Shown piece after piece: positions 8,716 through 29,149 of a stretch of 64,000 nt of DNA. Both the position numbers and the translations under genes were made by a program. The stretch's first letter is position 1, and every line of letters starts with the position of its first letter. The notes beneath the pieces are model-generated. The model did no database searches. It was not told the DNA's origin and saw nothing but the letters and a program-made list of their open reading frames with translations. Location of the stretch: NCBI GenBank assembly GCA_019423345.1, contig JAHZBN010000007.1, forward strand, positions 46,911 to 110,910, written 5' to 3'. The DNA is from Butyricimonas sp. (GTDB lineage: Bacteria > Bacteroidota > Bacteroidia > Bacteroidales > Marinifilaceae).

Positions 8716-8718
8716 GCT

Positions 8719-10287: not shown

Positions 10288-10293
10288 ATAGCC

Positions 10294-10321
10294 ATGGACG
10301 ATCGTTTTTACGGTCGTCCAT
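10294..10321 (+). other. intercistronic stem-loop (11-bp stem incl. one G-U, 6-nt loop), no U-tract
   Basis: atggacgatcg/ttttta/cggtcgtccat, between the stop at 10287 and the ATG at 10341. Confidence 0.45.
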
Positions 10322-10340
10322 CGAATACAACAAAGAAACT

Positions 10341-13300
10341 ATGTTAAAAATAAGTCATTTCATCAGACTCTTTTTTAGTGGGATATTGTTATTGAGTTTC
10401 TCCAATATATTCGGTCAAGAGCAAGAGGATAAACTCTTGCAATTGATGAAACAGGAATTGGAGTACAGCATGGAGGAGTTAAAGAAACAGGACAATATCC
10501 CCTATTACATGAATATGCGGGCGATGGACGATTATAATATGACGGTTATAAGTTCGTTCGGGGCTGTGACAACTGCCGATGAAAGCCGTATGAGAACGTT
10601 GGTACCGCAAATCCGGTTGGGAAGTCCGGAACTGGATAATTTTAAGTATAACGGGCAGGGAAGTGTTGTCGGACCTAACGCTCAAGGAGTGCGGGGAGTC
10701 GTTTTACCTCTGGATAATGATGCCCCGGATGCTATCCGGGAAGCCATCTGGCGGGAAACTTTACGACGTTACGAGTATGCCCGTAACGTATACGACCAAA
10801 CAAAGACCCGGGCAGCGGTGAGCGTGGAGGATGAAGATAAAGCACCGTGCTTTTCGGAGGCTCCGGTGGAACATTATTACGAGCCCCCCGTGGTTGTCAG
10901 TAACCGCAATACGGCGATGTTACAATCTTGGGAGCAACGGATGAACGAGGTTTCTGCCGTGTTCAAGAGTTGTCCGGAATTGCGTCAAGGATCAGCCAGT
11001 TTTAGTTATCAAGTGTTACGGACCTATTTTGTGAATAGCGAGGGGAGCGTGGTGGTGCAGAATCGTGTGTCTACCCGGATAATGTTAACGGCATCTTTGA
11101 AAGCGGCTGATGGGATGGATTTGCCGTTGAATATAAGTTATTTCGCTTACAAGCCGGAGGATTTACCGGATAATGGCCGGATCATTGCGGACGTGCAAGA
11201 CATGATTGAACGTTTATTGGCTTTACGGGATGCTCCGGTGGCCGATCCCTACACTGGTCCAGCAATTCTTTCGGGACCTGCGAGTGGTGTGTTTTTTCAC
11301 GAAATTTTCGGTCATCGTTTGGAGGGCCACCGTTTAAAATCAGGCGGTCAGACCTTCAAAAAAATGGTAGGGGAACAGGTTTTGCCCGAGGAGTTTCAAG
11401 TATATTGCGATCCGTTGCAAAAGCGTTATGCCAACACGGATTTGTACGGTCACTATGTGTATGATGACGAGGGCGTGAAAGCGCGTCGGGTGGATAACGT
11501 GGTGAATGGCGTGTTGAAAGAGTTCCTTATGAGCCGGGTTCCGTTGGACGGTTTCCCCGTGAGTAACGGTCACGGGCGTACTTCCGGAGGGGGTGATCCC
11601 GTGTCCCGGCAATCCAACTTGATTATCGAAACCAATCGTCCCTACACGGAAGATGAATTGCGTGCCATGCTGGTGGAAGAAGCCAAGAAACAAGGAAGAG
11701 AATACGGTTATTACTTTCGCTCGGTAACAAGCGGTTTCACCTACACGGGCGAGGGAGGAAGTTTGAACTCGTTTAACGTGACTCCCTTGGAAGTGTACCG
11801 GGTGTTCGTGGACGGTCGTCCGGACCAATTGGTGCGGGGTGTGGATTTGATTGGAACGCCGTTGTCAATGTTTTCCAATATTACAGCAGCCGGTGACGAG
11901 CCGAGCGTGTTTACGGGATCTTGTGGCGCGGAATCGGGTTGGGTGCCTGTAACGGCGATATCCCCCACGATATTCGTGAGCCAGATAGAGACTCAGCGGC
12001 GGGAACAAGCCCGGGATATTCCCCCGGTTTTACCTTCACCGAAACCGGAAAATAAAATTGTCAGGGACACGGATGAAACTATTTTTGCGGCTATGCGTGC
12101 CGAGTTGGACCGTAATAATGCTGCTTTGATGTTACCGAATAGTCCCAAGCCTTACTATATCTCGTACACGGTAGCCCGTTTCCGATATTTCTCGGTAGCC
12201 GGTTCGTTGGGAGGTATCCTGTTTTCGAGAGTTTCACCGTGGCAAATGAACGGGGGAGCGCGGATGATGCTAGGGGATTATCAACGTAATAATGATGTGC
12301 AGTATTCCGAACAGGTTGTTCCGGTCAAGTTACCGGCTGAGGTGGATTATGACGTGATTCGTCGCGGGTTTTGGGAATCGTCGGATATGATGTACAAATA
12401 TTCGTTGGGGATGATGGCGCAGAAAGCGAATTTCTTGCAACAGAATCCGCAATCGCCCGAGATGGCTGCTTTGCCGGAAATGCAGCAACTACCAGCCGTT
12501 ACCCGTATACAAGAACGGACAATGAAGTTCGAGATTGATCAGGCGGTTTTGGAACGGTTGGTAGCCGAAGCTTCGGCGGTATTTAAAGAGTATAAAGATA
12601 TTTATAACTCCAGCGTGGCGATTAGTGGAACAGAAATAGACCTTTATCGGTTAACCTCGGAAGGCGTGCAATTAAAGGAGCCGGGCGGACAGGTGACTTT
12701 GTCGATTATTGCGGAGGCCCGTGCTGATGACGGCTCGACTGTCGGCGATTCTTTCTCGCTCTCGTTATTGAACCCGGTAGAAATTCTCTCTATTGAAAAA
12801 ATGAAAGAACGGGTGAAAGCCTTTGCCGAAAGTTTGATGCAATTAAAGTCAGCTCCTCCGGTGGAAGAATATTACAACGGGCCGATTATGTTTGAGGGAG
12901 GAGCCGTGGCAACGATTTTGTCCGGTAATCTTCTGTATCGCGGAGGACTGATTGCGAACCGTTCGCTTGGTCCGTCTCGTGGTGGTTTGGAAGATCAGTT
13001 CGGTGGAAAGATTATAGATAGTCGATTGACTATTAAGAATTACACGACAATGAAAGAGTATAACGGAACCCCGTTATACGGGTATTACGAGATGGACGGG
13101 GATGGTGTTACTCCGGCAGCAGAGATGACGTTGGTTGAGAAAGGTGTATTTAAAAAGATGCTGAACGGACGGATTCCTGCGTTGAAAGCCCCGGAATCGA
13201 CAGGCAGTGCTCGCTTTATGTTTTCTCCGCAAAGTCCAACCATTGCGGTTGGCGTCGGGACGATTCATGTACAGGTGGATAAGGGGGATTCCCATGCGAA

Positions 13301-13646
13301 GATGAAGAAGATACTTATTAAAGCGGCAAAGGATGCCGGACAATCGTGTGCTTATATTGCGAGAGGAATTGCCGGGTCAGTTCCCGTGGTCTACCGCGTT
13401 GACCTTAAGGACGGAAAAGAAACCCGTGTCCGCACAGCCGGATTCCGTATGCCCGATTTAACGAAGTTACAGAAGATTGTGGCGATATCTTCGAAAGAAG
13501 AGGTGATGAATTTTATTCCGAATTACTATCCCGCCTCAATGATCTATCCCGCCGGAATGATTGTGGATGGTTTGGTTATCGAGAAAACTAGTCTGAAAAC
13601 AGAGAAAGAACCGGCGTTGAAAGTACCGAGACAACGGGAGGAGTGA
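10341..13646 (+). CDS. secreted double-module TldD/PmbA-family metallopeptidase
   Basis: ATG at 10341 gives a signal peptide (MLKISHFIRLFFSGILLLSFSNIFGQ). The track's 10254 start overlaps the upstream gene. TldD-type HExxxH site GVFFHEIFGHRLEGHRL. About twice the length of single TldD/PmbA proteins. Confidence 0.75.
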   Translation: MLKISHFIRLFFSGILLLSFSNIFGQEQEDKLLQLMKQELEYSMEELKKQDNIPYYMNMRAMDDYNMTVISSFGAVTTADESRMRTLVPQIRLGSPELDNFKYNGQGSVVGPNAQGVRGVVLPLDNDAPDAIREAIWRETLRRYEYARNVYDQTKTRAAVSVEDEDKAPCFSEAPVEHYYEPPVVVSNRNTAMLQSWEQRMNEVSAVFKSCPELRQGSASFSYQVLRTYFVNSEGSVVVQNRVSTRIMLTASLKAADGMDLPLNISYFAYKPEDLPDNGRIIADVQDMIERLLALRDAPVADPYTGPAILSGPASGVFFHEIFGHRLEGHRLKSGGQTFKKMVGEQVLPEEFQVYCDPLQKRYANTDLYGHYVYDDEGVKARRVDNVVNGVLKEFLMSRVPLDGFPVSNGHGRTSGGGDPVSRQSNLIIETNRPYTEDELRAMLVEEAKKQGREYGYYFRSVTSGFTYTGEGGSLNSFNVTPLEVYRVFVDGRPDQLVRGVDLIGTPLSMFSNITAAGDEPSVFTGSCGAESGWVPVTAISPTIFVSQIETQRREQARDIPPVLPSPKPENKIVRDTDETIFAAMRAELDRNNAALMLPNSPKPYYISYTVARFRYFSVAGSLGGILFSRVSPWQMNGGARMMLGDYQRNNDVQYSEQVVPVKLPAEVDYDVIRRGFWESSDMMYKYSLGMMAQKANFLQQNPQSPEMAALPEMQQLPAVTRIQERTMKFEIDQAVLERLVAEASAVFKEYKDIYNSSVAISGTEIDLYRLTSEGVQLKEPGGQVTLSIIAEARADDGSTVGDSFSLSLLNPVEILSIEKMKERVKAFAESLMQLKSAPPVEEYYNGPIMFEGGAVATILSGNLLYRGGLIANRSLGPSRGGLEDQFGGKIIDSRLTIKNYTTMKEYNGTPLYGYYEMDGDGVTPAAEMTLVEKGVFKKMLNGRIPALKAPESTGSARFMFSPQSPTIAVGVGTIHVQVDKGDSHAKMKKILIKAAKDAGQSCAYIARGIAGSVPVVYRVDLKDGKETRVRTAGFRMPDLTKLQKIVAISSKEEVMNFIPNYYPASMIYPAGMIVDGLVIEKTSLKTEKEPALKVPRQREE

Positions 13647-13689
13647 GTTTTAAATTTTAGATTTTAAATTTTGGATTAAAAATGACAAG

Positions 13690-14790
13690 ATGAAGAAGAT
13701 TTTAATTACGATATGCACGTTGTTTGCTTGTGTCATGTTATCCGTGGCACAAGGCGATAGTTACAGAATTACGGGCCAGGTGGGTAACTCCGTCAACGGG
13801 AAATTACTGTTGGTGGCTCTCACGGAAAAGGGCTTGATTGATATCGGAGAGGCGGTCATCACGAATGGAACTTTCGAGTTCACGGGCCGGATGTCGGAAA
13901 CGACGTTGGCTTACTTGATGCCGGTCCAGAGAAATGCGGCATTGGCAACCATTATGCTGGAGAATGCGAATTACACGATTACTGCGGGTACAAATGAATT
14001 GCTCGTGGAAGGCGGTGGGGAGGCTCAAAGAATATTGAAGGAGTTCAACGATTTGGAAAAATATCTGATACAAAGCGGACAACAATTGCAAGCACAAGCT
14101 AAGGCGAATCCTACACAAGCACAAAAACTGCGGGAAAATTTCAAAAAGATAATAACTCAAGTGGAGACTGAAGAATTGGCATTGTTGAACAAGTATAGCG
14201 ATACATACGTGGCCGCTTATGTTGTGTATGCCAAATTGTCACAATCCTTTGATGAAACGAAGTTGGAAGAACGCTATAATATCTTGGGAGAAAAGGCTAA
14301 AGCTACCATTTATGGCAAACAAATCGCTGCCGAACTGAAAAAGATTCAAAAATTAGCGATAGGAGCCATTGCTCCCGACTTTACGGCCCCGTTATCCGAT
14401 GGTGGTGTACTTTCTCTGCACGAGACAAAGGCTAAAGTAAAAGTTGTTGATTTCTGGGCATCTTGGTGTCAACCTTGCCGAGCAGAGAATGTGAACCTGA
14501 TAAAGATTTACAAACGCTTCCGCCCGAAGGGGTTGGAAATCATCAGCGTTTCACTCGATGACAACAAACACGCTTGGTTGGCTGCCATCGGGCAGGACGG
14601 TTGCAATTGGAAGTGTGTGTCTGATTTGAAAGGACAAAAATCAGAAATCGCCGCTGAATACCAAGTGAAAGGCATCCCTTGTACCTTTATCCTCGACGAG
14701 GAAAACCGCATCGTGGCTAAAAATCTCCGGGGTAGAGAACTAGAGAAAAAGATTGAGGAGATGTTGAAAAAGAAGAAGGATAAGGAGTAG
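13690..14790 (+). CDS. TlpA-family thiol:disulfide oxidoreductase with an N-terminal DUF4369-like domain
   Basis: 366 aa. Signal peptide. Thioredoxin CxxC site FWASWCQPCRAE. Pattern …GIPCTFILDEENRIVAKNLRG. Paralogue at 30691. Confidence 0.85.
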   Translation: MKKILITICTLFACVMLSVAQGDSYRITGQVGNSVNGKLLLVALTEKGLIDIGEAVITNGTFEFTGRMSETTLAYLMPVQRNAALATIMLENANYTITAGTNELLVEGGGEAQRILKEFNDLEKYLIQSGQQLQAQAKANPTQAQKLRENFKKIITQVETEELALLNKYSDTYVAAYVVYAKLSQSFDETKLEERYNILGEKAKATIYGKQIAAELKKIQKLAIGAIAPDFTAPLSDGGVLSLHETKAKVKVVDFWASWCQPCRAENVNLIKIYKRFRPKGLEIISVSLDDNKHAWLAAIGQDGCNWKCVSDLKGQKSEIAAEYQVKGIPCTFILDEENRIVAKNLRGRELEKKIEEMLKKKKDKE

Positions 14791-15371: not shown

Positions 15372-15893
15372 ATGGGGGAAAAACTACTGTTATTTTTGGT
15401 GATAAGTACGCTGATCAGCCAATCGTCATGCGTTTCGGTGCATAAAAAATTGGCGAAACAGGAGAGGATAGATGCGATTTATGCGAAAATAGATAGTCGG
15501 GAGTATCGGATTGATATATACCCTCCATATAGGGTTGAAACGGATGGTCCCGTCATATATGTTCCGGAATATTTCCAAGTAAGTGGAGATTCTTTAATCT
15601 CTTGTATGCTCCAGGATAATCCTTTTTCGGGTTCGTTTCCTCCTAAAGGTTACGCGGAACAGATGAAAAGTTCGAAATATAAAATTTTTGATTATAAGCA
15701 AATCGTAACTCGTAGTGGTCGGCGGATTGTGAGTTTCTGGGTCAAAATAAAATATGTATGGGATGATATCTATTTCTTGACAAGATACGAAGATCAGTTT
15801 GTTCCTATTTATTACAAGCTTGAATTCGGGAAAACACTCAAGGTGCGAGTTCTTCAAAATGAATATCCGATGTCTGGAGTATTGTCGTTGTGA
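15372..15893 (+). CDS. hypothetical lipoprotein
   Basis: 173 aa. Signal/lipobox-like LISQSSC. No family recognised. Confidence 0.45.
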   Translation: MGEKLLLFLVISTLISQSSCVSVHKKLAKQERIDAIYAKIDSREYRIDIYPPYRVETDGPVIYVPEYFQVSGDSLISCMLQDNPFSGSFPPKGYAEQMKSSKYKIFDYKQIVTRSGRRIVSFWVKIKYVWDDIYFLTRYEDQFVPIYYKLEFGKTLKVRVLQNEYPMSGVLSL

Positions 15894-15937
15894 ATGTGGT
15901 AGCGAAAAATTTGGTATTAACCAATAATTTATGGATT

Positions 15938-16612
15938 ATGAAAAAAATAATTTTAACCTTATTTATATGCTTATCTTGCATCATAGTAGCAAACGCTAGA
16001 TTGTACCCACATGTCGTGGATACTTTGCTAAAGAGAGTAGTTAACGGCTTGGAAGTGATTCCGGTAAGAACAACCTATTATGATTCGGGAGAGATATATT
16101 GGGATTTGAGAGTCTCTGATTTTGAGAAATGTTTTCAGCGGTTCGAGAGTAAATGTCCGGGAGAAATTAATTACAAATTGAACTCTGATGAAGTGAACCA
16201 AGCTATTTATGATTGGCAGGATAAACTTTGGGAAATATATCCTCCGGAAATAAAAGCTTTAAAAGACTTTGATCTGGTACTTTTTATTGATAAAAATGGA
16301 CGTGTTTTTGCAGTGGAGTTTTCTATGCCCGATGAAGCGTTTCAGAAACTGGAAGAACTCCCGGAGAATACGTTGAAAAACTTTTACCAAAATTTGATAA
16401 AAAAGAAGTGTAAAGCTTTTAAAGAAATAGATTTCCATGTTTTGGATTCTAATAATGATTTCGATAGACCGGAATATACAACCATCTGGTTGAGAAAGGT
16501 TGGTTATGACATATTCGGTACATTTAACCCGTTGAATTTACCGAGAGAAGAGTTCAGAAGATTGATCGAAGAGGAAGAGGCAAGAATGAAAAGCCAGCAG
16601 AAAGAACAATAA
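15938..16612 (+). CDS. secreted hypothetical protein (shares a core motif with 31805 and 32461 products)
   Basis: ATG at 15938 gives the signal peptide MKKIILTLFICLSCIIVANA. The track's GTG at 15890 adds a non-hydrophobic extension. Core LVLFIDKNGRVFAVEFSMP. Confidence 0.5.
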   Translation: MKKIILTLFICLSCIIVANARLYPHVVDTLLKRVVNGLEVIPVRTTYYDSGEIYWDLRVSDFEKCFQRFESKCPGEINYKLNSDEVNQAIYDWQDKLWEIYPPEIKALKDFDLVLFIDKNGRVFAVEFSMPDEAFQKLEELPENTLKNFYQNLIKKKCKAFKEIDFHVLDSNNDFDRPEYTTIWLRKVGYDIFGTFNPLNLPREEFRRLIEEEEARMKSQQKEQ

Positions 16613-16633
16613 GTCTTCTTCCTTGTGAATACC

Positions 16634-16681
16634 CTTATTCCTTCATAATTACTATGATGAGAAGTAATTATGAAGAATAAG
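16634..16681 (+). terminator. strong stem-loop downstream of the 15938 gene (18-bp stem with one bulge)
   Basis: cttattccttcataattac / tatgatgagaa / gtaattatgaagaataag. No clear U-tract, so terminator function is uncertain. Confidence 0.4.
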
Positions 16682-16863
16682 TAGGCGAAAGATACATATA
16701 AAATGAGGATCGTTTCAGGGTTTGTCAAAAAGCGGTCCTCTTTTTAAATTTTTTGCCTGCTTGCAGAGAATGTTTGGCCTTTTGTTTTCCGGTTTTGTTT
16801 GCAAATATCAATAATCACTACAACCGCCGGGGCTGATTTTACGAGGTGTAAAATCAATAATCT

Positions 16864-17265
16864 ATGGAAAACAAAAAGACCAATACTTTGATACATTTGA
16901 ACGGCCTCCGTTATGGTGAGGGACATATATTTCTTTGGTGGGAGAATTATTGGCGGCGGCTTTTGTACGTTGACATTCTTTACATTGAGGGATCGGGCAG
17001 TTATTGTGAATTTCACGCGATCGACGGGAGTCGGATGACGATTTCTTATCGTTTGGGGGTGATGAAACACTCGTTACCGGACGACACGTTTATCCGGATA
17101 CACCAGAGTTTCATCTTGAACTGGCGTTACATCGATACATTTGTGGGCAATAGCGTGAAAATCGGTGACCGATGGTTTCCGGTAGGTCGGACTTATCGTC
17201 CCCACCTGCTGCAAGTGTTGCATTTCCCGAAACTTCCCCTGCAAAATAGTAAACAAGAGTTATAA
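16864..17265 (+). CDS. stand-alone LytTR-domain DNA-binding protein (no receiver domain)
   Basis: 133 aa. LytTR pattern ILYIEGSGSYCEFHAIDGSRMTISYRLGVMKHSLPDDTFIRIHQSFILNWRYI. Confidence 0.75.
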   Translation: MENKKTNTLIHLNGLRYGEGHIFLWWENYWRRLLYVDILYIEGSGSYCEFHAIDGSRMTISYRLGVMKHSLPDDTFIRIHQSFILNWRYIDTFVGNSVKIGDRWFPVGRTYRPHLLQVLHFPKLPLQNSKQEL

Positions 17266-17640: not shown

Positions 17641-17969
17641 TTTTTTATTCCTCAAGTTAATTTGCATTGAATCCAAGGTTGTCGATACTTGTTGTATTTA
17701 TTATACTAAATACCCGAACATCTTTCGTTGCGTGCAGGGTGTTCTTAGGGATTAAACACGTATCACTTTCGAATCAAAGACGTTTCAAAGACGTTCAGAA
17801 GTGTCTTTGATTCGGGAGAGAAAGGCTGTTGTTGCCTGTTTGTTGGAGATGCTTGTTGGTGATTCTTCGTTTTATTACATGAATTGTTTTGGGGACTTTT
17901 GTTGGAGCGGGTCCCTGTTTTTATGAATGAGAGAAATGTGGGACTTATCCTGAATATGTAGTGAAAAAT

Positions 17970-18001
17970 GTCGTTTGTGAAAAGATTCGGTCGTTTGTGA
18001 A
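17970..18001 (+). promoter_or_regulatory. exact 12-bp direct repeat gtcgtttgtgaa x2, 20 bp start-to-start (candidate LytTR-type binding site)
   Basis: Copies at 17970-17981 and 17990-18001, immediately upstream of a TAnnTTTG box. Confidence 0.4.
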
Positions 18002-18030: not shown

Positions 18031-18038
18031 TACCTTTG
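18031..18038 (+). promoter_or_regulatory. Bacteroidota -7 promoter box (TAnnTTTG)
   Basis: tacctttg, 39 nt upstream of the ATG at 18077. Confidence 0.4.
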
Positions 18039-18076: not shown

Positions 18077-18700
18077 ATGGCAATAGTAGACGAAAATATT
18101 CGAGGAAAGATCGGGAATTCGGTTTTCTACCGGGTCGGGGTTGTAACACGGGTGAGGAGTGCGGCAACGAGTTACACGGATGCGAATACGACAAAACAAC
18201 AGGAAAGCCGTTCCCGTTTGAGGGTGGCGATACGTTTTTACCGACGTTTGGTGGAGATCGGGTTACAGGAGGCGTGGTATCTGGCGGCTAAAGGAACCGG
18301 AAAAAGTGGGTACAATTTCTTTTTGAAATTAAACATGATGGTTTTTAAGCCTAACGGGAAGATTGGAGATTTTGCCCGATTGCAGTTGACGATTGGAATG
18401 TTGCAGAAGGTAAATCATCTCATGGCACGTGTTGACGGGGAAGATACGGTTTCCTTGTCATGGGAGAAGGCAGAGTATCTTCCTTCAGCGGGGGCAGGGG
18501 ATGAGTTGGTGGTTGTCGTGCTTTATGCCGATCGTTCGTTTTCTCCGGAATTTGTTAAGACTAACGGGGAGACAAGAGGTGACGAGGAAGCCACTTTTCG
18601 TTTACAACGTAAACGGGGGACGGCGGCTCACTTGTACTGTTTCTTCCGGGGAAAGAACGGGGAAGCGTATTCTCCGAGCCAATATCTTGGGGTTTCATGA
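18077..18700 (+). CDS. unknown-function protein, paralogue A (resembles what I recall as the DUF6266 family)
   Basis: 207 aa. Shares blocks with the 20048 product: IRGKIGNSV / LLGKARKSV, TTKQQESRSRLRVAIRFYRRL / TPEVLAQRARMKALVQLSRQL, and C-terminal LYCFFRGKNGEAYSPSQ / LYCFATLKNGKGASDSQ. Confidence 0.5.
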   Translation: MAIVDENIRGKIGNSVFYRVGVVTRVRSAATSYTDANTTKQQESRSRLRVAIRFYRRLVEIGLQEAWYLAAKGTGKSGYNFFLKLNMMVFKPNGKIGDFARLQLTIGMLQKVNHLMARVDGEDTVSLSWEKAEYLPSAGAGDELVVVVLYADRSFSPEFVKTNGETRGDEEATFRLQRKRGTAAHLYCFFRGKNGEAYSPSQYLGVS

Positions 18701-18914
18701 TTTTAGATTTACGATTGGGTGATTAAGGTATTTCCGAATAGAAGATTACTTTATAAACCTTATAGATTAATAGAAGACGAGGCGTTTAATTGTTCCTGAC
18801 GTGTCGTTACGGGGGAGACTTGGGTGAGGGTAAAAGGGAACAGGTAATTTTAATACAGAGAAATATGGCAAAAAGAGAGACAAGTAAAAGAGAAGAAATG
18901 ACAGAGGTGAAGAA

Positions 18915-19313
18915 TTGTATCGTTACGGCTTTACGGCTTTGGAAGGAGTGAAAGGTGTGGTCGGGGCGGTTGGCAAGGTGATTGACCGCCTGACACTCCC
19001 GGCGAGGGAGAAGCGGCAATTGGAAGCGGAATTATTGGAATTGCTGGTTGAACACGAGAAGGAGATGGCCCGATCCCGCTCGACAGTGGTGGTGGAAGAG
19101 GCCCGGGGAAACTGGTTGCAGCGATCATGGAGGCCGTTGGTGATGTTGGTGTTTGCGTTGATCGTTCTCGTGGGAACGTTCACGACGTTGCCTATCCTTT
19201 CCGATACTTCTCGTTTTTGGGATTTATTGGAAATCGGCTTGGGTGGTTACGTGGTCGGACGGGGTGGAGAAAAAATGGCCGCAGCCATTTTTAGGTTAAA
19301 AGCTAAAAAGTAA
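18915..19313 (+). CDS. 3TM-type holin (the 'holin of 3TMs, for gene-transfer release' family)
   Basis: 132 aa (TTG start in track; exact start uncertain). Has GVVGAVGKVIDRL…EKRQLEAELLEL…GNWLQRSWRPLVMLVFALIVLVGTF, typical of this holin family. Confidence 0.65.
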   Translation: MYRYGFTALEGVKGVVGAVGKVIDRLTLPAREKRQLEAELLELLVEHEKEMARSRSTVVVEEARGNWLQRSWRPLVMLVFALIVLVGTFTTLPILSDTSRFWDLLEIGLGGYVVGRGGEKMAAAIFRLKAKK

Positions 19314-19353
19314 AAGTTAAAAACTTGGTTAACTAAATTTTTTATTTATGGCA

Positions 19354-19382
19354 TTTTCAATTTTCAATTCTTCATTTTCAAT
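19354..19382 (+). repeat. ttttcaa-type heptamer repeat tract
   Basis: ttttcaattttcaattcttcattttcaat. Translates to the artefactual FSIFNSSFSI at the head of track ORF 19348. Confidence 0.7.
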
Positions 19383-19398
19383 CGTGAACCATCGCTTG

Positions 19399-19956
19399 AT
19401 GGGAGACAGGGTGGTTCACTTGGTGAGCGCAAAGAATACCCGGCGTTTGGAGGGGCCGGACATGATCGTGTTACATTACACGGCGGGAACGAGTGCTGAA
19501 AGTTCTGCACTTTTCCTGACTCGTCCTGACGTGTCGGCTTCGGCTCATCTGGTGATTGGGCGGGATGGGGAGGTGTTTCAACTGGTGCCTTTCAACATTG
19601 AGGCATGGCACGCTGGGAAAAGTTGGTATGCCGGACGTGGCGGGTTGAATCATTATTCGATCGGAATAGAGCTGGATAACTTGGGGAAACTCCGCTTCTC
19701 GGGTGATTTGTTTATCGCGGAGTGTGGGCGTGTGGTGCCGCTTGATGAGGTTTACACGGATTGTTCCGGTGATAGCCCGACATACTGGCATCGCTACACG
19801 GCAAGACAGATCCGGGTGTTACGGGAAATCTGTACTCTACTGGAAGAGAACTACCCGATTCGTGACGTGGTGGGACACTCGCTAATCACGCCGAGAAAGA
19901 TCGATCCGGGCCCGGCGTTGGAATTCGCATTTAGCGAATTTCAAGATAAAAATTAA
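19399..19956 (+). CDS. N-acetylmuramoyl-L-alanine amidase (Amidase_2 / AmpD-PGRP type)
   Basis: MIVLHYTAGTS…ASAHLVIGRDGEVFQLVP…AWHAGKS…SIGIELDNLG…VVGHSLITPRKIDPGP. The ATG at 19399 avoids the repeat-encoded extension (alternative start 19348). Confidence 0.85.
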   Translation: MGDRVVHLVSAKNTRRLEGPDMIVLHYTAGTSAESSALFLTRPDVSASAHLVIGRDGEVFQLVPFNIEAWHAGKSWYAGRGGLNHYSIGIELDNLGKLRFSGDLFIAECGRVVPLDEVYTDCSGDSPTYWHRYTARQIRVLREICTLLEENYPIRDVVGHSLITPRKIDPGPALEFAFSEFQDKN

Positions 19957-20015
19957 AAGTTAGAAACTAAAAATATACCTTCTTGGGGCAGGGCCCGCCC
20001 CGGGAGTGTAGAGTT

Positions 20016-20044
20016 CATTTTCAATTCTTAATTTCAATTTTAAA
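20016..20044 (+). repeat. ttttcaa-type repeat tract
   Basis: cattttcaattcttaatttcaattttaaa, directly 5' of the ATG at 20048. Confidence 0.6.
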
Positions 20045-20047
20045 ATT

Positions 20048-20677
20048 ATGGCAGAATTTAATTCGTATTTATTAGGAAAAGCAAGGAAATCAGTAGGTAA
20101 CATCACATTGTGTTACACGAGAGGGAAAAACATTGCCAAGGCGAAGGTATTTTCTCGAAAGGATAACCCGACGCCGGAGGTACTGGCACAGCGGGCAAGG
20201 ATGAAAGCGTTAGTGCAATTATCCCGACAGTTGTTGCCGGTGATCCGGAAAGGTTTTGTCGGAATCGGCAAAGGCTCGGCGGCAAACGCTTTCACCTCGG
20301 TGAATATGTCTCGGGTTTCGGTGGACGAGCGGAATGTGGCAACCGTGGATTTTGACCGCTTACTTTGTGCTTCTGGAATGTTGTATCCACCGAAGGTGGA
20401 AGTGACTTACTCGGAAGAGAACAAGATGTATTCTTTCGTGCAAGAAATGCAGGACGAGGAGAACGGCTACGCTTTCAATGATGACGTGGTGTACGCCATG
20501 TTATACGAAACGGTACTTGGTCGTGCCCGTTTGGTAACGTTACGAGCTCGTGGCGAGAACGGTAACACTACTTATGCTCTCCCAGAGGAGTGGAGTAACG
20601 AGAATGTGAAACTATATTGTTTTGCCACGTTGAAGAACGGGAAGGGAGCTTCGGATAGCCAAGTGATGACGTTGTAA
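20048..20677 (+). CDS. unknown-function protein, paralogue B of the 18077 product
   Basis: 209 aa. Same block structure as the 18077 product (see there). Confidence 0.5.
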   Translation: MAEFNSYLLGKARKSVGNITLCYTRGKNIAKAKVFSRKDNPTPEVLAQRARMKALVQLSRQLLPVIRKGFVGIGKGSAANAFTSVNMSRVSVDERNVATVDFDRLLCASGMLYPPKVEVTYSEENKMYSFVQEMQDEENGYAFNDDVVYAMLYETVLGRARLVTLRARGENGNTTYALPEEWSNENVKLYCFATLKNGKGASDSQVMTL

Positions 20678-21051
20678 GCTGTGATTTGCGATTTTGAATT
20701 CGAGGATTCAAGAGTTTCAATGATCGAGTGATTTTAACGAGGATGAAGTTTCATGTTTCCGGTATGGAATTCCTGCCGGAGGCATGAGACTCATCGTTAT
20801 CGCAGATGGCGGATAACTTGTTGACGGGAGTTTTTTTAGTATTATTGGTGGAGTGATCAGTTCCCTTGCCGTGACTTGGGTGAAGCGATGGTAGGAGAGA
20901 AGGAGATAAGATGCTTGGGGGTAAAATTCGTTTTAAAACCTAAACGAGTTAAAATTTAACATTGTTAAATGTAATTTTTCCCCATTTTTTGAAGTAAAAA
21001 TGGATAGGTAAACATGATATATATAAAAGTGGATAAAAATTACGAAAAGAT

Positions 21052-22200
21052 ATGATAAGGAAGAACAAAATAAACATAGAAAGCGAAGATTGGGAAATGG
21101 CTGAAAGGGCGATAAAGCAGTCGGGGACGGTGAAAGAGAAGCTTACTAGCCAAGAGATTGGGAAAGAAACATTTTCGGGTAAAGTTGAAGAGTGGGTTGA
21201 GGCAGTTCATGGGGTTTCGAAAATAGATAAGAAAAAAGCAGTTGAAAAGATGTTGGCCGAGTTAAAGAAGCGAGATCGGAAAAAGAGGGCGGTTCGTGTG
21301 TGGTGGACAGCGGGAGGATCGGTGGCTGCGGCAATACTTGTGTTCTTTACCTTGACACAGTGGTTACAATGGGGAAAAGAGACATCGGACGAGGAGAAGA
21401 TTACGACTGTCGCTTTGACCGAGATAAAGGTACCGACTTTGATCACGATGGAGAGAGAACATGGTGTATTATCTCAAGAAATATTAGATCTGAAGAAAGC
21501 AAAAGAGGGATACCGTGTAAAGGGATCGGGAAAAAAGGAAGAAACGGATGTTGATACGAGTGAGCCGATTCGTTATAATCGAGTTGTAATTCCCGCGGGT
21601 TTCACTTATAAAGTAAGACTTGCCGATGGGTCTGTCGTGACGTTAAATGCTGGTAGTGAACTGAAGTTCCCGGAGGAGTTTCGAGATTCATTACGTGAGG
21701 TGGAGTTTACGGGAGAGGCATATTTTGAGGTGGAGAAATCAGATAAGCCTTTTATCGTGAAGGCCGGAGATTCACGAGTACAGGTTTATGGGACACGTTT
21801 CAATTTATTTTATAGTGAGAAACTTGCTTTGGCCGAGGCTGTTTTGGTTGAAGGAAGTATAGGTATGACGGCGAATGGTAAAGAAACTAAGATTATTCCC
21901 CATCAACGGGTATGGTATTCCATGAAGGATTCATTGATGCGTACTGAAAATGTCGATCCGGCAGATTACTTGACTTGGTTGGGTAATAGTTTTAAATATA
22001 ATAGGACCAGATTGGATAAAATTGTTTTTGATATAGCTCAATGGTACGGGGTAGAAATCAAGATTGCTCCGGGCTTGGAGAAACAGGCATATAGCTTGGA
22101 GTTTGATCGATCAGCCACTATTGATTGGGTGGTGCGTGCTTTAGGACTGATTATTGACAAACCGATTAAAACAGAGGGAGGTGCATATTATATAGAGTAA
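21052..22200 (+). CDS. FecR-family anti-sigma factor
   Basis: 382 aa. TM segment WWTAGGSVAAAILVFFTL. Motifs RLADGSVVTLNAGSELKFPE, EVEFTGEAYFEV, VYGTRFNL. Paralogue of 722..1753. Confidence 0.85.
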   Translation: MIRKNKINIESEDWEMAERAIKQSGTVKEKLTSQEIGKETFSGKVEEWVEAVHGVSKIDKKKAVEKMLAELKKRDRKKRAVRVWWTAGGSVAAAILVFFTLTQWLQWGKETSDEEKITTVALTEIKVPTLITMEREHGVLSQEILDLKKAKEGYRVKGSGKKEETDVDTSEPIRYNRVVIPAGFTYKVRLADGSVVTLNAGSELKFPEEFRDSLREVEFTGEAYFEVEKSDKPFIVKAGDSRVQVYGTRFNLFYSEKLALAEAVLVEGSIGMTANGKETKIIPHQRVWYSMKDSLMRTENVDPADYLTWLGNSFKYNRTRLDKIVFDIAQWYGVEIKIAPGLEKQAYSLEFDRSATIDWVVRALGLIIDKPIKTEGGAYYIE

Positions 22201-22350
22201 ATTCACATTTACCTAAAAAAGAGAACCTTCTCAGAGAAGATTCCCTTTTGAAACATAACTCAAAGGTTCGATTTCTCAGGTCTGACACCTTTGGTGGATG
22301 TTCATCATTACAACGTAAGTAAAACGTTACATTTAATTTCTCACAAATTT

Positions 22351-25300
22351 ATGAAAAAGAAAGTGGAAATCATTAAAACAAGGGCAAATAAAATTGCCGT
22401 CGGTATATTTTTGTTGTTTATTTCGACGTTGTATTGCCCCAAACAACTTTTTGCTTCTGAATTTATAGAAGTACAACAACAGCAAGATCAAAAGAAGGTT
22501 ACTTTAAATATGAAAGACAGGACGCTAGTAAATATCCTGTCGGAAATTAAAAGACAAACGGGTTTGGCTTATGGTTTTCGCGATAATCGGGATGCGACTT
22601 CGAATGAACGTTTCTCGATTCAAGTGAAAGAAGTAAGTGTCGATTCCGCTTTGAGCGTGTTGTTGAAAGAATCAAAATATTCTTATCAGATCGTGGGTGA
22701 TTTAATCTTGATCAGTACTAAAAAAGATACAACAACCGAAGACCAGAAGAATTTGATCATGGTAAAGGGAACGATTGTTGACGAGAATGGGAATCCGATT
22801 CCCGGGGCAACAATTCTTGTTCACGGGACGTCCCGGGGTATAGCTTCGGATATGGAAGGACGGTATTCCATCGAGGCAAAACCAGATGACGTGTTGAAAA
22901 TTACCTTTGTCGGTTATAAAGATGAAGTGATTCCGATCAAAGGGAAAACTAAAATCGATGTTCGTTTGAACCCGACGGTTGAAAATATTGAGGAGGTTGC
23001 CGTGGTGGCTTTCGGTACGCAGAAAAAGGAAAGTGTGGTTTCAGCTATTACGACGGTAGACGCTTCCATGTTAAAGTCTTCCAATAGTGATTTGACTTCC
23101 CAGTTTGCGGGGAAAATTGCCGGTATGATCGGGTGGCAGCAGGGAGGTATTCCCGGAGCCTTGACAGAAGAAGAGATGAATACTAAATTTTACATTCGTG
23201 GTATCACGTCTTTCCAATCCGGGGCAAATATTGATCCTTTGATCTTGTTGGATGGGGTGGAGGCTTCTAAGTTGGATTTGGCTCGTATTGATCCGGAGGA
23301 TATCGAAACATTCAGTGTGATGAAAGATGCTTCTGCCACGGCGATGTATGGAGCCAGAGGAGCGAATGGAGTGATTATCGTGACGACCAAGAAGGGACAG
23401 GAGGGTTCGGTTTATACTTCTGTTCGTTATGAGGCGATAGCGACTATGCCGACGGATGAGATTGATGTTGTGGATCCCGTCACGTGGATGGAGATGTATA
23501 ATCAAGCTCTTTTAAGCCGGGATCCTAATGCTACTCCTAAATACTCGGCCGAACGAATTGCCAGAACAGGAAGTAAGAAATATCCTGATTTCGTTTATCC
23601 GGCAAATGATTGGTATAATGTCTTGTTCAAGAATTTCTCGATAAACCATCATATGGGAATCAATATCCGGGGTGGGTCGAAAGTGATTCAATATTATGCT
23701 TCCGTTAATCATAACCGGGATCAAGGTATGTTGAAGACAGACCGATTGAATCAATTTAAGGTGAATATTAATAATAATAATACTTCTTTTCGTTTGAATT
23801 TGAATATCGATTTGAGTAAAGGTATTAAATTGGTTGTAAATTCTTTTACCACTCTCGATTCTTATCATGGTCCCCTGGAGGATGTAAGAACTGCTTATTC
23901 TTTGGCTTTTTACGCTAATCCGGTGGATTTTGCCCCGACTTACCCGGCAGATGACACCTATAATTGGCCGCATTTACGTTTTGGAAAGTCTCGTGATAGT
24001 GATAATCCTTATGCCTTGATTCAACGGGGATACGTGGATCGGAGTCGTTTCTCGACAATAAATCGGTTGGAATACATCCAGAATCTTTCTTTTCTGTTGA
24101 AAGGGCTTGAATTCCGGGGGGATGTTTCTTTTAGTCAAGCGGGTTATTATTCCAATCCGTACATGACAACACCTTTCTATTACAGCTTGTTGGATTATGA
24201 TCATGTTACCGGTAAACACACGTTAGAAGCATTAAATCCAGATGAAGGGAAAAGAACTTTATTGAAGGGAAGTGGAACGACAACTGGATCGAATCAGTTG
24301 GCATATAATATTAAGATTTTGCACACGGCTGCTTGGAAAGATCACACGACTTCTTATCTGGCCGTGTTGTCCGGACAGGAGTCTTTACAGTCAACTCCCA
24401 ATAGCGTGTTAGACGGTATTCGTCGGCGTAACCTGGGATTGTCGATGCGTCTTTCATACGGTTATAAAGAGCGTTATTATCTTGAAGGCAGTTTCGGTTA
24501 TAATGGTTCTGAACGTTTTGCAAAGGATCATCGGATGGGATTTTTCCCGTCGGTAGGAGGTGCTTGGGTGGTTTCCAAAGAACCGTTTTTATTAGGTTCC
24601 TCGAAGTGGTTATCATTCTTGAAATTAAGATTATCCTACGGGAAGGTCGGGAATGATGGTATCATTGATACTCCGCGTTTTGTTCATCTTCCGAGTATTG
24701 GGCAGGATCAACCGTCTGGCTCGTTCCGTCCGGGATTGGGACAGATTTCAAGGTATAGAATCACGGGTTACCAGAATAATGATGTAACTTGGGAGATTGC
24801 AGAACAGGCGAATTTGGGGCTTGAGACCAAGTTTTTTAATGGATTGTTTGAGGCTACGGTAGATATATATCAGCAGGTTCGTCATAACGTGCTGGCCAAT
24901 CGTACTGTTATTCCGGAGGCTATGGGATTGGGTTTGCAACCATTGGATAATATTGGTAAGGTAAGGTCTCGCGGGCTTGATTTTGCCGGTAAGATTCAAC
25001 ACGCGTTTAACTCGGATCTTTGGGTGATTTTGAATGGGACATTTACTTACAGTAAAGCAACTTATCTGAAAATCGAGGAAGCTGCCGATAAACCGGAATG
25101 GCAATGGAAAAAAGGACACGATATTTCACAACAGGTCGGTTATATCGCGGAAGGTTTGTTCCGAGACCAGATGGAAATTGATAATTCTCCCGTGCAGGGA
25201 GGGGATTTAATGCCGGGAGATATTCGTTATCGAGACATAAATGATGATGGCGTGATAGATGTGAAGGATGCCGTGCATATCGGTTTCCCGACGACTCCAC

Positions 25301-25806
25301 GTATCATTTATGGATTTAATGGTTTTATTAATTATAAAGGATTAGAGTTCAGTTTTGCATTCCAGGGATCCGGACAACGGGGATTCTTTATTAATCCGGC
25401 AGCAATTTCTCCTTTTTATGGGAATCATGCTTTGCTTACGGCGATTTATAAGGATCACTGGTCTGTGGATAATCAGGCGGAAAGACCGTTATGGCCCCGA
25501 TTGTCAACAAAAAGTATCACGGCTCACAATCCACAGGAAGATTATACAACAGATAAAGAAACTCGAATGAGTACCTATTTTTTGAAAGAGTGTCGTTTCT
25601 TGCGTTGTACTTCGTTGGAATTAGGATATAATCTTCCCAAAAAGTGGTCACGTAAACTGGCATTGAAAAACTTAAAGGTGTACGTGCGTGCCAATAACCC
25701 GTTCCTGATTTCGAATTTTGATCTTTGGGATGTGGAGTTAGGGGGAAATGGATTTAATTATCCGATACAAAAAACCTATTCGGTTGGTTTAAATGTAAAC
25801 TTTTAA
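22351..25806 (+). CDS. SusC/RagA-family TonB-dependent transducer with STN domain
   Basis: ATG at 22351 (MKKKVEIIKTRANK…); the track's TTG at 22291 is an unlikely extension. STN VTLNMKDRTLVNILSEIKRQTGLAYGF. Long runs identical to the 1896 product (e.g. FSVMKDASATAMYGARGANGV, NTKFYIRGITSFQ). Confidence 0.9.
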   Translation: MKKKVEIIKTRANKIAVGIFLLFISTLYCPKQLFASEFIEVQQQQDQKKVTLNMKDRTLVNILSEIKRQTGLAYGFRDNRDATSNERFSIQVKEVSVDSALSVLLKESKYSYQIVGDLILISTKKDTTTEDQKNLIMVKGTIVDENGNPIPGATILVHGTSRGIASDMEGRYSIEAKPDDVLKITFVGYKDEVIPIKGKTKIDVRLNPTVENIEEVAVVAFGTQKKESVVSAITTVDASMLKSSNSDLTSQFAGKIAGMIGWQQGGIPGALTEEEMNTKFYIRGITSFQSGANIDPLILLDGVEASKLDLARIDPEDIETFSVMKDASATAMYGARGANGVIIVTTKKGQEGSVYTSVRYEAIATMPTDEIDVVDPVTWMEMYNQALLSRDPNATPKYSAERIARTGSKKYPDFVYPANDWYNVLFKNFSINHHMGINIRGGSKVIQYYASVNHNRDQGMLKTDRLNQFKVNINNNNTSFRLNLNIDLSKGIKLVVNSFTTLDSYHGPLEDVRTAYSLAFYANPVDFAPTYPADDTYNWPHLRFGKSRDSDNPYALIQRGYVDRSRFSTINRLEYIQNLSFLLKGLEFRGDVSFSQAGYYSNPYMTTPFYYSLLDYDHVTGKHTLEALNPDEGKRTLLKGSGTTTGSNQLAYNIKILHTAAWKDHTTSYLAVLSGQESLQSTPNSVLDGIRRRNLGLSMRLSYGYKERYYLEGSFGYNGSERFAKDHRMGFFPSVGGAWVVSKEPFLLGSSKWLSFLKLRLSYGKVGNDGIIDTPRFVHLPSIGQDQPSGSFRPGLGQISRYRITGYQNNDVTWEIAEQANLGLETKFFNGLFEATVDIYQQVRHNVLANRTVIPEAMGLGLQPLDNIGKVRSRGLDFAGKIQHAFNSDLWVILNGTFTYSKATYLKIEEAADKPEWQWKKGHDISQQVGYIAEGLFRDQMEIDNSPVQGGDLMPGDIRYRDINDDGVIDVKDAVHIGFPTTPRIIYGFNGFINYKGLEFSFAFQGSGQRGFFINPAAISPFYGNHALLTAIYKDHWSVDNQAERPLWPRLSTKSITAHNPQEDYTTDKETRMSTYFLKECRFLRCTSLELGYNLPKKWSRKLALKNLKVYVRANNPFLISNFDLWDVELGGNGFNYPIQKTYSVGLNVNF

Positions 25807-25812
25807 TGTATC

Positions 25813-27750: not shown

Positions 27751-27803
27751 ACGAATTTTAGATTTACGATTTTGATTGTAGATTTTAATCTTTTAAAAAT
27801 AGA

Positions 27804-29135
27804 ATGATGAAAAATACAATTTTGATATTATTGTTGATATTCGGATTGTTTGCCTGTGAGGACAACGATTCCTACTTTGATGCTTCGATCCCCCAGGAAA
27901 ATGTTCGGTTCAAGGCCATTCCGGGAGGGGCTGTTATGCATTACACCTTACCTGAAAATACGGATATTTTTGCCGTTAAGGCAGAGTATGAAGATTACAA
28001 GGGAAAGAAAATGATCAAGATTGCCTCTTATGCTTATGATTCACTCGTGCTTGACGGGTTTAATGAAGCTCGAAATAACGTGCCGGTGCGGGTGTCATTG
28101 TTGAATCAAAGTAACGAGGCATCGAAAGCGATGGAGTTTACTTTCAATACACAGGATTCTGGTCCGGTGGCTTTCTTTAACGATATAGAGGTGTTACCTT
28201 ATTGGGATGGATTTCAGGTAAAATATAAGGTCCCCGGAGCTGCTACCGGACTTTGTAACGTGTTTTTTATCGGAACGAATCCCATGACTCGGGAGCTGGA
28301 TACTCTTTTATTGGAAACTTTCGCTATTGAGGCCGGGGAGAATGTGAAATATTTTTCTTTAGCTCAAAAAAGGGACGTGAATACTGTTGTCGTGAAAACG
28401 GAAGATTTTAGGGGGAATGTGGCCATGCAGAAAGTATACGAGGGAGTTGCTTCATATAACGTGGGGAAATTGGATCCATCGAATTTCGAGTGGCTGGATC
28501 CGTTCTCTTTGTCCGTGGAGAACGATAATCAAGGATTTATGGTCGGTTGGAAGTATCTTTTTGATGGTGATGTAAAAGGTTCTCGGAAATTGGCTTTTCA
28601 AGAATCTTGGGGTACAGCAATGCCTCCGGCGAATATGTATTCTTTTGTAACTGTTCCCTACGCAGTGAATAAGCCGGATGCCCCGAAATATTTTATTTTG
28701 GATATCAAGGAACCCAAGCAAGTTTCTAGTATTAGGATGTATGGAATGTTAAATCTGAATAGCCTGACAAAACCCTCTGTTTTCGTAACGTGTTACGGTA
28801 CGATGTTACCTAATGAGGTGACAATATATGCATCTAATAATAAAGATGATAATACTTCTTGGGTCAAGGTGGGTAATTTTTATCAGTCGTTGACAGCGGC
28901 GGTTCCATGGATACAACGTGCCGGTGATGTTGATGGTTCCACGAAAATAAAGACGACAAGTGAACTTGAAGCCGTGGAACCATGCTACCTTACGGTTAAT
29001 TTTTCTGTTGATAATCCTCCTTACAGGTATTTCAAGGTTGAATTTAACAGTGTTTTTAAAGAGATACCGAATCAATATTATAAAAATACCACGGAACGGG
29101 TGACTTTGCATGAGGTTGAAGTATACGGGAAATAA
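27804..29135 (+). CDS. DUF4959/DUF5000-type surface lipoprotein (tentative), paralogue of 7360
   Basis: 443 aa. Lipobox LFAC. GGAVMHYTLPENTDIFAVKAEY…DGF. C-terminal VTLHEVEVYGK. Confidence 0.55.
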   Translation: MMKNTILILLLIFGLFACEDNDSYFDASIPQENVRFKAIPGGAVMHYTLPENTDIFAVKAEYEDYKGKKMIKIASYAYDSLVLDGFNEARNNVPVRVSLLNQSNEASKAMEFTFNTQDSGPVAFFNDIEVLPYWDGFQVKYKVPGAATGLCNVFFIGTNPMTRELDTLLLETFAIEAGENVKYFSLAQKRDVNTVVVKTEDFRGNVAMQKVYEGVASYNVGKLDPSNFEWLDPFSLSVENDNQGFMVGWKYLFDGDVKGSRKLAFQESWGTAMPPANMYSFVTVPYAVNKPDAPKYFILDIKEPKQVSSIRMYGMLNLNSLTKPSVFVTCYGTMLPNEVTIYASNNKDDNTSWVKVGNFYQSLTAAVPWIQRAGDVDGSTKIKTTSELEAVEPCYLTVNFSVDNPPYRYFKVEFNSVFKEIPNQYYKNTTERVTLHEVEVYGK

Positions 29136-29149
29136 TAAATAGACGAATT

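Follow-up and report, generated by a model that had tools for sequence, protein, structure and literature searches.

What a holin and a peptidoglycan amidase of phage type are doing in a bacterial chromosome, between the genes for two paralogous proteins, is the question raised by a locus of Butyricimonas sp. (assembly GCA_019423345.1). The stretch of DNA analysed, referred to below as the window, comprises 64,000 nucleotides of contig JAHZBN010000007.1 (positions 46,911 to 110,910 of the forward strand), and the locus is a cassette of four genes which specify protein A, the holin, the amidase and protein B. The reading which we favour, while considering it somewhat likelier to fail than to hold, is that of a domesticated, transcriptionally gated holin-amidase module which would lyse or open the cell and free the leaderless, basic proteins A and B in a manner similar to type 10 secretion.

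The four open reading frames (ORFs) lie on the plus strand at 18077-20677 in the order A, holin, amidase, B, exactly where an original prediction, made from the letters of the sequence, had placed them (Table 1). The longest ORF of the holin starts at a TTG codon (18915-19313); the true start is likely the GTG at 18957, which gives the 118-residue form called in relatives. The holin and amidase genes are 35 nt apart. Hydropathy analysis revealed no hydrophobic segment in A, B or the amidase (maximum Kyte-Doolittle 19-residue mean <=1.1), in agreement with the earlier statement that neither A nor B possesses a transmembrane segment or signal peptide.

In an effort to define how widely the arrangement is kept, a genome census was undertaken with one genome per GTDB species and a pattern scan derived from the B-clade alignment (three peptide patterns). 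It returned 40 loci; the census covers the B-clade pattern only, and its copy numbers are lower bounds. ORFs were called in all of the loci and were then searched with profiles of five window proteins. The amidase gene lies directly upstream of B in 37 of the 38 loci with sequence upstream of B, the sole exception (L058) being a truncated B-only remnant, and the full A-holin-amidase-B set is present in every one of the 32 loci with enough flank (Butyricimonas, Odoribacter). Across contigs with differing flanks, A is followed by up to three small genes and then by the holin, the amidase and B, with extra genes after A in L059 and L038; a different order (holin, amidase, A, B) is seen in L018. 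B. muris GBG-M4 has at least nine copies, B. synergistica DSM 23225 at least five and Odoribacter sp. AF15-53 at least three, and the B proteins of these isolates show 41%-74% identity to that of the window. The cassette is a conserved, multi-copy and diverged unit in Odoribacteraceae isolate genomes, a state which the original prediction had missed.

Selection on the genes was estimated as the ratio of nonsynonymous to synonymous substitution rates (dN/dS) in three comparisons, of the window with L010, L007 and L013; the window and L010 loci both lie upstream of lepA. The ratio was 0.09-0.20 for A and 0.08-0.14 for B, the holin gave 0.11-0.19 and the amidase 0.10-0.11, and the dN of the cassette genes was about 10-17 times that of lepA in the same loci. 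Ratios as low as these together with high dN indicate that the four genes evolve fast but are constrained. The option that the cassette is a domesticated remnant, which had been put forward with its description, is untenable in so far as it implies decay, since all four genes are under purifying selection.

The flanks point in the same direction. No capsid, tail, terminase or integrase gene was found among the ORFs of at least 100 amino acids between 722 and 37314 of the window; these ORFs specify SusC/SusD/FecR-type utilisation proteins, thioredoxin-like proteins, or unknowns without a PHROG match, which confirms that no phage genes lie within at least 15 kb on either side. Phage structural and integrase genes were likewise lacking in the Pfam annotation of 12 annotated contigs, and no such families occurred among the 25 listed of the 64 PHROG families matched by 148 flank proteins of related loci. 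Proteins A and B had no match in INPHARED (50,697 phage records), no relative in IMG/VR, no family in PHROGs and no match in plasmid collections. A prophage or mobile-element origin of the whole unit was ruled out by the non-phage flanks and by the absence of A and B from the phage and plasmid collections, and no larger prophage was seen here or at about 45 related loci, as expected of a chromosomal, non-prophage module. A capsid, portal, terminase and tail cluster of the kind that marks a gene transfer agent (GTA) was found neither in the window nor in the related loci; what links the cassette to GTAs is only the name of the holin family.

It could still be supposed that the unit is a decaying remnant of a prophage or mobile element which has no present function. 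The phage type of the holin and amidase, the degradation of two accessory genes in the window copy (see below), the truncated L058 copy and the position of some copies beside IS66 would all suit such a remnant. With low dN/dS in all four genes, gene order intact in 37/38 loci across two genera, examined flanks free of phage structural, integrase and terminase genes, and A and B absent from the searched phage and plasmid collections, we regard this as very improbable indeed, and a dead prophage remnant is essentially excluded.

The two halves of the cassette appear to differ in ancestry, the holin and amidase being of phage origin by their homologs and A and B not. Both A and B match DUF6266 (PF19781; gathering score 23.4), a model of about 198 positions, A with 28.5 bits over model positions 4-198 and B with 25.8 bits over positions 4-187; in Pfam the family is also matched by 66 of 74 diverse relatives. 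By profile search (E-value <=1e-3) the family comprises 5448 clusters at 50% identity, nearly all of them of about 205-220 residues. For distant pairs, a fusion and solo genes of this family, holin and amidase genes were sought within 8-10 kb. In L063 and L066 an A-like and a B-like gene adjoin, 13-40 bp apart, the first nearest to A and the second nearest to B, with no holin or amidase gene within 10 kb. P0322 is a fusion of two DUF6266 copies (446 amino acids), and solo DUF6266 genes are found in Pedobacter lusitanus (L060) and in a Butyricimonas-like locus (L004). Such pairs, fusion and solo genes without lysis genes imply that A and B have a role of their own and that the lysis genes are the added part. 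Judged from these homologs, the A/B pair predates the cassette and occurs more widely, and it is the more likely course of events that an existing A/B pair of the Odoribacteraceae took in the holin and amidase genes. The view of A and B as accessories dedicated to the lysis module must accordingly be abandoned, the pair being older and occurring without lysis genes, and the co-occurrence of holin and amidase with A and B, for which a test had been suggested, is found within the clade (37/38 informative loci) but not for the pairs, fusion and solo genes named above, which have neither nearby.

Proteins A and B show 25% identity over 178 residues (E-value=1e-5), and the three blocks that they had been said to share, N-terminal, central and C-terminal, are visible in the alignment. 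B is 97% identical to a protein of a Butyricimonas virosa metagenome-assembled genome, and this match, along with how close homologs are named, assigns the window to B. virosa or a near relative. In the AlphaFold2 model of A (pLDDT 88, pTM 0.77), residues 1-28 form a small N-terminal beta region, residues 39-89 three helices and residues 113-206 a C-terminal FN3/Ig-like sandwich. The N-terminal halves of both proteins are strongly basic, the helical part having a pI of 10.8 in A and 11.6 in B, and the FN3 part is acidic. Using Foldseek, the full-length model matched generic FN3 domains only, and the N-terminal 112 residues modelled alone had no fold match in the PDB. A profile search of PDB sequences gave no match to A or B even at an E-value of 10; no second recurrent Pfam family was detected among 74 DUF6266 members scanned at an E-value of 1, and no PADLOC model matched any cassette protein. 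The structure prediction that had been proposed for A and B has therefore given a model and no functional reading beyond generic FN3 matches. Searches of the literature found no paper mentioning DUF6266, and those for a capsule-flanking amidase in Bacteroides gave nothing useful.

The holin belongs to Pfam family PF11351 (GTA_holin_3TM; E-value=1.3e-9) and to the PHROGs holin family phrog_3427 (E-value=8.6e-23), and the protein annotated as holin in Pseudoalteromonas phage HS6 shares 42% identity with it. Its description as a protein with three transmembrane helices stands as a family match: hydropathy shows a single unambiguous transmembrane segment, at residues 60-82 of the 118-residue form, and "3TM" is the name of the family. 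The amidase matches PF01510 (E-value=2e-26) and the PHROGs amidase family phrog_1794 (E-value=3e-28), and shows about 40% identity to endolysins from phages of Alphaproteobacteria. When aligned with AmpD and AmpDh2 by HMMER, it is seen to have kept the conserved LHYT, GHS and DPGP motifs, which we take to hold the Zn ligands. Its closest PDB and NCBIfam relatives are AmpD, AmpDh2 and AmiD; at 94.8 bits it falls short of the cutoff of the AmpD equivalog model (NF008758, 143 bits). As in holin-endolysin cassettes, a member of a recognised holin family adjoins a peptidoglycan hydrolase without a signal peptide. No spanin pair, unimolecular spanin or disruptin was recognised, and no ORF for a lipoprotein or type II membrane protein lies in 18077-21052.

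This gap has to be set beside the possibility that A and B are themselves lysis machinery, either leaderless cationic disruptors of the outer membrane in the role of spanin or disruptin, or regulators of the holin. Such a role would account for a cassette without a recognisable spanin, for the strongly basic N-terminal halves and for the tight bracketing of holin and amidase by A and B in 37/38 loci. To our knowledge, spanins are not known from the phylum Bacteroidota. A and B were, however, not found in the phage collections searched, whereas the holin and amidase do have phage homologs, and the pairs, fusion and solo genes with no holin or amidase within 8-10 kb argue for a role independent of lysis. 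We consider it unlikely that A and B belong to the lysis machinery.

For the favoured reading, in which A and B are cargo of a gated module, the region upstream of A is of particular interest. It includes the gene for a LytTR-only DNA-binding protein, a candidate activator, whose LytTR domain occupies residues 35-118 and which has no receiver or other domain; an 800-bp non-coding stretch follows, and then A. In the comparison of the window with L010 the LytTR protein diverges faster (63% identity) than the products of the cassette genes (79-88%). The non-coding stretch contains a distal operator-like element and, closer to A, a pair of exact direct repeats, GTCGTTTGTGAA, which lies 30 nt upstream of the promoter-like motif TACCTTTG. 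The repeat has no further match in the 64-kb window at <=1 mismatch, and the pair is conserved in the orthologous locus L010. The consensus of the Bacteroidetes -7 promoter motif is TAnnTTTG; motifs of this type are placed likewise in L010, L013, L046, L047 and L049. A scan for sigma-70 promoters and terminators gave background levels and is not informative for Bacteroidetes promoters.

Clustering of the neighbours revealed two recurrent upstream contexts. About 16 cassettes, that of the window included, follow a LytTR-only gene, and about 14 follow the 3' end of a capsule locus (glycosyltransferases, DegT, Wza/Wzc-like) together with a conserved unknown gene of 120-195 residues. The 140 nt upstream of A were scanned for repeat pairs with a pitch of 19-23 bp, and the scores were compared with those of shuffled sequences. 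Seven of 16 LytTR-linked loci had repeat pairs beyond every shuffle and two more tied with the best shuffle, as against none of 13 capsule-linked loci. The LytTR-linked direct repeats have a pitch of 20-22 bp and precede the ATG of A by about 95-140 nt; their sequence varies among paralogous cassettes, at least five distinct sequences being represented. In LytTR operators defined by experiment, 9-bp repeats separated by 11-13 bp immediately precede the promoter (PMC6193735). The geometry of the repeats fits these operators, which suggests binding by the LytTR protein. A receiver-less regulator and paired direct repeats at a predicted site upstream of a candidate promoter are both found, as in LytTR systems, and give substance to the earlier remark that the module is possibly regulated. 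By gene content and by the placement of the repeats, it falls outside the canonical two-gene LytTR regulatory systems.

An invertible promoter was considered for the 800-bp region and rejected: flanking inverted repeats of the type used by Bacteroidales invertases are lacking, and only a short local palindrome is present. No Rfam family and no tRNA was found near the cassette. Direct-repeat arrays with an 11-bp period were seen in the region between LytTR gene and A in L026 (7533-7599), L028 (7831-7874), L046 (1135-1178), L013 (9695-9716) and L007 (9738-9759); they differ in sequence between loci and look like locus-specific protein-binding arrays. The capsule-linked loci L001, L030, L032-L034 and L040-L042 share a different conserved region about 60-130 nt upstream of A, which has a promoter-like TAATATTGCATTCG and, after it, a short hairpin, ATCAACGAGAGTTGAT. 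No relationship was detected between the unknown gene upstream of the capsule-type cassettes (120-195 amino acids) and a gene for a 232-residue protein that comes after A in three loci, and neither has Pfam or NCBIfam matches.

Two further genes of the cassette are degraded in the window. The first is a relic between A and the holin of an HTH_17/MerR-like gene. Alignment of the DNA shows the intact counterpart, of 133 residues, in L010; intact HTH_17-type genes lie between A and the holin in L007, L010, L024, L026 and L031, and the homolog in L059 matches HTH_17 at 4.9e-12. The second, after B, is the pseudogene of a small membrane protein, recognised with tblastn (20838-20906, E-value=1.6e-5) and by three-frame translation against L010, L007 and L013. 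The family of this protein of about 52 residues is present and intact after B in L007, L013, L025 and L054, and a 52-residue gene was called in L010; the protein has no lipobox, and its possible roles include those of antiholin, LytTR inhibitor and outer-membrane factor. Neither relic, nor the upstream LytTR gene, had been part of the original description.

Table 1. Features of the cassette and of the region upstream of it (positions in the window)
Feature	Position	Strand	Remarks
LytTR-only DNA-binding protein, candidate activator	16864-17265	+	133 aa; Pfam LytTR 4.6e-10
Distal operator-like element	17763-17821	+	Two 11-bp direct repeats TCAAAGACGTT (17774-17795) within a 24-nt imperfect inverted repeat
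Proximal exact 12-nt direct repeat pair GTCGTTTGTGAA	17970-18001	+	20 bp start to start; candidate LytTR site
TACCTTTG, match of Bacteroidetes -7 type	18031-18038	+	39 nt before the ATG of A; read directly
DUF6266 paralogue A	18077-18700	+	207 aa; Pfam
HTH_17/MerR-like gene relic	18856-18951	+	31 codons left; central deletion of about 215 nt which removed the HTH
Holin, PF11351 (GTA_holin_3TM)	18957-19313	+	118 aa from GTG 18957; Pfam and PHROGs
Amidase_2 zinc N-acetylmuramoyl-L-alanine amidase, AmpD/AmiD-like	19348-19956	+	202 aa; no signal peptide
DUF6266 paralogue B	20048-20677	+	209 aa; architecture as in A
Small membrane-protein pseudogene (about 52 aa)	about 20797-20894	+	Frameshifted, N-terminally truncated

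If the module works as we tentatively propose, the LytTR protein would bind the repeats at 17970-18001 and activate a promoter at about 18031, and A, holin, amidase and B would be co-expressed, as their common strand and spacing suggest. From what is typical of their families, the holin would permeabilise the inner membrane, and the leaderless amidase would cross the holin lesion to the periplasm and cut the stem peptides from the peptidoglycan. The fusion P0322 leads us to predict that A and B form a heteromer; this would probably exit as cargo through the holin lesion, either upon lysis of a subpopulation or by non-lytic leakage, which is the weakest step. With many diverged copies, each having its own regulator or its own capsule locus, the copies could be triggered independently.

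A number of points weigh against this proposal. On the side of regulation, the approximately 14 capsule-linked cassettes have neither the LytTR gene nor the repeats, so that LytTR control is not general, and seven of the 16 LytTR-linked loci lack a significant repeat pair. No plausible gene for a transmembrane inhibitor is found beside the LytTR gene in the window, the ORFs after LytTR in L007 and L010 do not specify membrane proteins, and no repeat is visible upstream of the LytTR gene (16612-16864), so autoregulation is not indicated. The two degraded accessory genes may signify altered regulation, or a copy on its way out. On the side of lysis, the holin has one clear transmembrane segment, the amidase is by sequence nearest to AmpD, a cytoplasmic recycling enzyme, although it would not rank as an AmpD equivalog, and there is no recognised disruptor of the outer membrane, though full lysis of a diderm cell needs one. 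The carriage of three to nine lytic cassettes per genome looks hazardous. The activities of holin and amidase are predictions from their families, expression, lysis and secretion are putative for every member, and the fold of A and B yields no functional clue. The weakest point is the putative role of A and B as cargo or extracellular proteins.

The cassette of the window lies between two tandem paralogous polysaccharide-utilisation loci (722-14790 and 21052-31782), each with FecR, SusC, SusD, DUF4959, DUF4998 and a thioredoxin-like gene, F5_F8 being noted with DUF4998. The first locus also encodes an unusual PmbA/TldD-like protein of 1130 residues. The second FecR gene (21052) has no adjacent gene for an extracytoplasmic function (ECF) sigma factor, such as L013 possesses between B and FecR, and 20677-21052 showed no remnant of one. 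The LytTR gene is preceded by two unknown genes (173 and 240 amino acids; 15372-16612) which recur ahead of LytTR in related loci; compared with the unknowns trailing the second utilisation locus they show little (E-value=0.036) or no similarity, and nothing links them to the cassette. Arrays of unknown genes of about 170-250 residues, some with signal peptides, precede LytTR in the window (15372-16612) and in L013 (2796-9032), L007 (6392-8908) and L018 (1017-5941), and may be immunity or lipoprotein arrays; those of L007 and L018 come after large DUF6443/YD-shell (Rhs-type) toxin genes. The linkage of an Rhs toxin to a lysis cassette in these two loci recalls the lysis-dependent release of Tc toxin.

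Among other neighbours, defence-type genes adjoin the cassettes of L010 (4819-9248), L015 (11237-13096), L007 (13067-14792), L018 (6674-8118) and L049/L050; they include SMEK/CTD with DUF2326 and RhuM, AAA_21 with RloB, DUF4276 with an AAA ATPase, and AbiEii. In L010 an IS66 element is inserted between LytTR and the cassette. In L068 (7045-8657) a distant DUF6266 gene lies beside a serine recombinase (Resolvase/HTH_7) and a biosynthesis locus of nonulosonic-acid/capsule type, a further association of the family with capsule genes; the contig ends right after the DUF6266 gene. At 34536-35768 the window encodes a 410-residue protein with a retroviral-type aspartyl protease domain (Asp_protease_2 / gag-asp_proteas, E-value about 3e-11).

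Neighbours of this kind raise the question of abortive infection, in which the fast-evolving, FN3-bearing A and B would sense phage and trigger suicide through the holin and amidase, the many copies covering many phages. Capsule loci are determinants of phage susceptibility in Bacteroides, and many copies of the cassette adjoin them. The multi-copy state, a dN 10-17 times that of lepA and the presence of AbiEii, AAA_21 with RloB, DUF4276 with AAA, SMEK/CTD, DUF2326 and AAA_14/DUF4143 at several cassettes fit a defence role as well. Yet no PADLOC model is matched, dN/dS gives no whole-gene sign of positive selection, and A/B pairs occur without the effector in other lineages; LytTR transcriptional control, moreover, suggests that expression is the trigger rather than post-translational sensing of phage. 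To this explanation we give a small chance of being right.

The same surroundings, and the nature of the amidase, bear on a non-lytic role in the maintenance of the envelope. Here the cassette would remodel or recycle peptidoglycan locally for capsule export or for SusC/SusD systems, with A and B as cytoplasmic factors of these loci which possibly bind nucleic acid. The relationship of the amidase to AmpD, AmpDh2 and AmiD and the repeated position of cassettes where capsule loci end or next to ECF-sigma/FecR/SusC loci would be explained, and many copies are more tolerable if they are not lethal. Pfam and PHROGs, however, both place the membrane protein in holin families, and the amidase is well below the AmpD cutoff and about 40% identical to phage endolysins. 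SusC/FecR loci are frequent in these genomes, so that adjacency may be due to chance, and the downstream neighbours of the cassettes are not conserved. The chance that the module serves the envelope in this way seems to us slim.

Returning to a gated module for the release of A and B, a bolder form of it can be envisaged, which we offer as a speculation with little probability behind it. The A/B heteromer would represent a hitherto unrecognised, Bacteroidota-wide class of leaderless proteins that act outside the cell or in the envelope, as matrix, binders of extracellular DNA or particle-forming proteins. The basic N-terminal half may bind nucleic acid or other anionic polymers, with the C-terminal half as an Ig-like display domain. 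In the Odoribacteraceae each variant pair would have its private holin-amidase exit and regulator, and the genome would hold a battery of independently triggered devices for altruistic lysis and release, tied to capsule and glycan loci.

Regulated self-lysis and type 10 secretion have been described in a few Proteobacteria and Firmicutes, most of them pathogens, and we know of nothing comparable for gut Bacteroidota, among which the release of vesicles, DNA and enzymes shapes community behaviour. A domesticated lysis cassette for regulated release is in itself already known; what is new here, and for which no literature was found, is the phylum, the pairing with DUF6266, the insertion inside an ancient pair of paralogues and the multi-copy state with private regulators. 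The module is compact and easy to manipulate, with a candidate activator and operator beside its four genes, and it is conserved, selectively maintained and multiplied. Should it lyse or open cells on command, it would make programmed lysis in commensal anaerobes accessible to study, give DUF6266 its first link to a function and possibly serve engineered Bacteroidota as an inducible release tool. If it serves defence or envelope remodelling instead, the multi-copy design with private regulators is still unusual.

Several known systems invite comparison. LytSR controls the holin-like cid/lrg genes in staphylococci, and an output linked to cell death or lysis would be common to the LytTR/LytSR systems and the present one. 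With HdrRM/BrsRM of Streptococcus mutans (PMC6193735) it shares a receiver-less LytTR protein and direct repeats with a pitch of about 20-21 bp upstream of the target promoter. It differs in that no membrane-inhibitor gene stands beside LytTR and repeats were not found upstream of the LytTR gene. Its target is a phage-type holin-amidase pair, whereas the targets of LytTR systems are bacteriocin, competence and cid/lrg genes.

The second comparison is with GTAs. PF11351 was named for the holin of the lysis genes of the Rhodobacter capsulatus gene transfer agent, and includes phage holins such as TeaA of ICP1. The cassette has in common with the R. capsulatus lysis genes the holin family and a host-regulated holin and endolysin that would serve release rather than phage propagation; unlike them it is accompanied by no capsid, portal, terminase or tail genes, has another type of endolysin and gives no sign of DNA packaging. 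In Pseudomonas aeruginosa the pyocin-associated Hol/Lys cassette drives explosive lysis, which releases vesicles and extracellular DNA. There, as in the model favoured here, the host would control a domesticated phage lysis module which frees the contents of a subpopulation; Hol/Lys is single-copy and lies in a tailocin cluster, whereas the Butyricimonas cassette has no tailocin genes and is multi-copy.

The closest parallel is with type 10 secretion. Holin/endolysin cassettes that do not belong to prophages serve Yersinia, Serratia, Salmonella and Clostridioides for the release of leaderless cargo, examples being the Tc toxin cassette of Yersinia entomophaga, ChiWXYZ of Serratia, the chitinase/typhoid toxin system of Salmonella and TcdE/TcdL of C. 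difficile (PMC10847048, PMC10109510). Unlike these, the present module occurs in Bacteroidota, has a holin of PF11351 and an Amidase_2 enzyme in place of a muramidase or endopeptidase, lacks spanin genes and is present in three to nine diverged copies per genome. The cargo of type 10 systems is a toxin or enzyme, whereas the putative cargo here is a pair of small paralogous proteins, known from their genes. What is shared is a chromosomal, non-prophage holin beside a leaderless peptidoglycan hydrolase, co-oriented genes for proteins without signal peptides and a nearby gene for a dedicated transcription factor. At the level of the genes, then, the Butyricimonas cassette has the arrangement by which type 10 systems are recognised, a holin and a hydrolase outside a prophage and beside genes for leaderless proteins.

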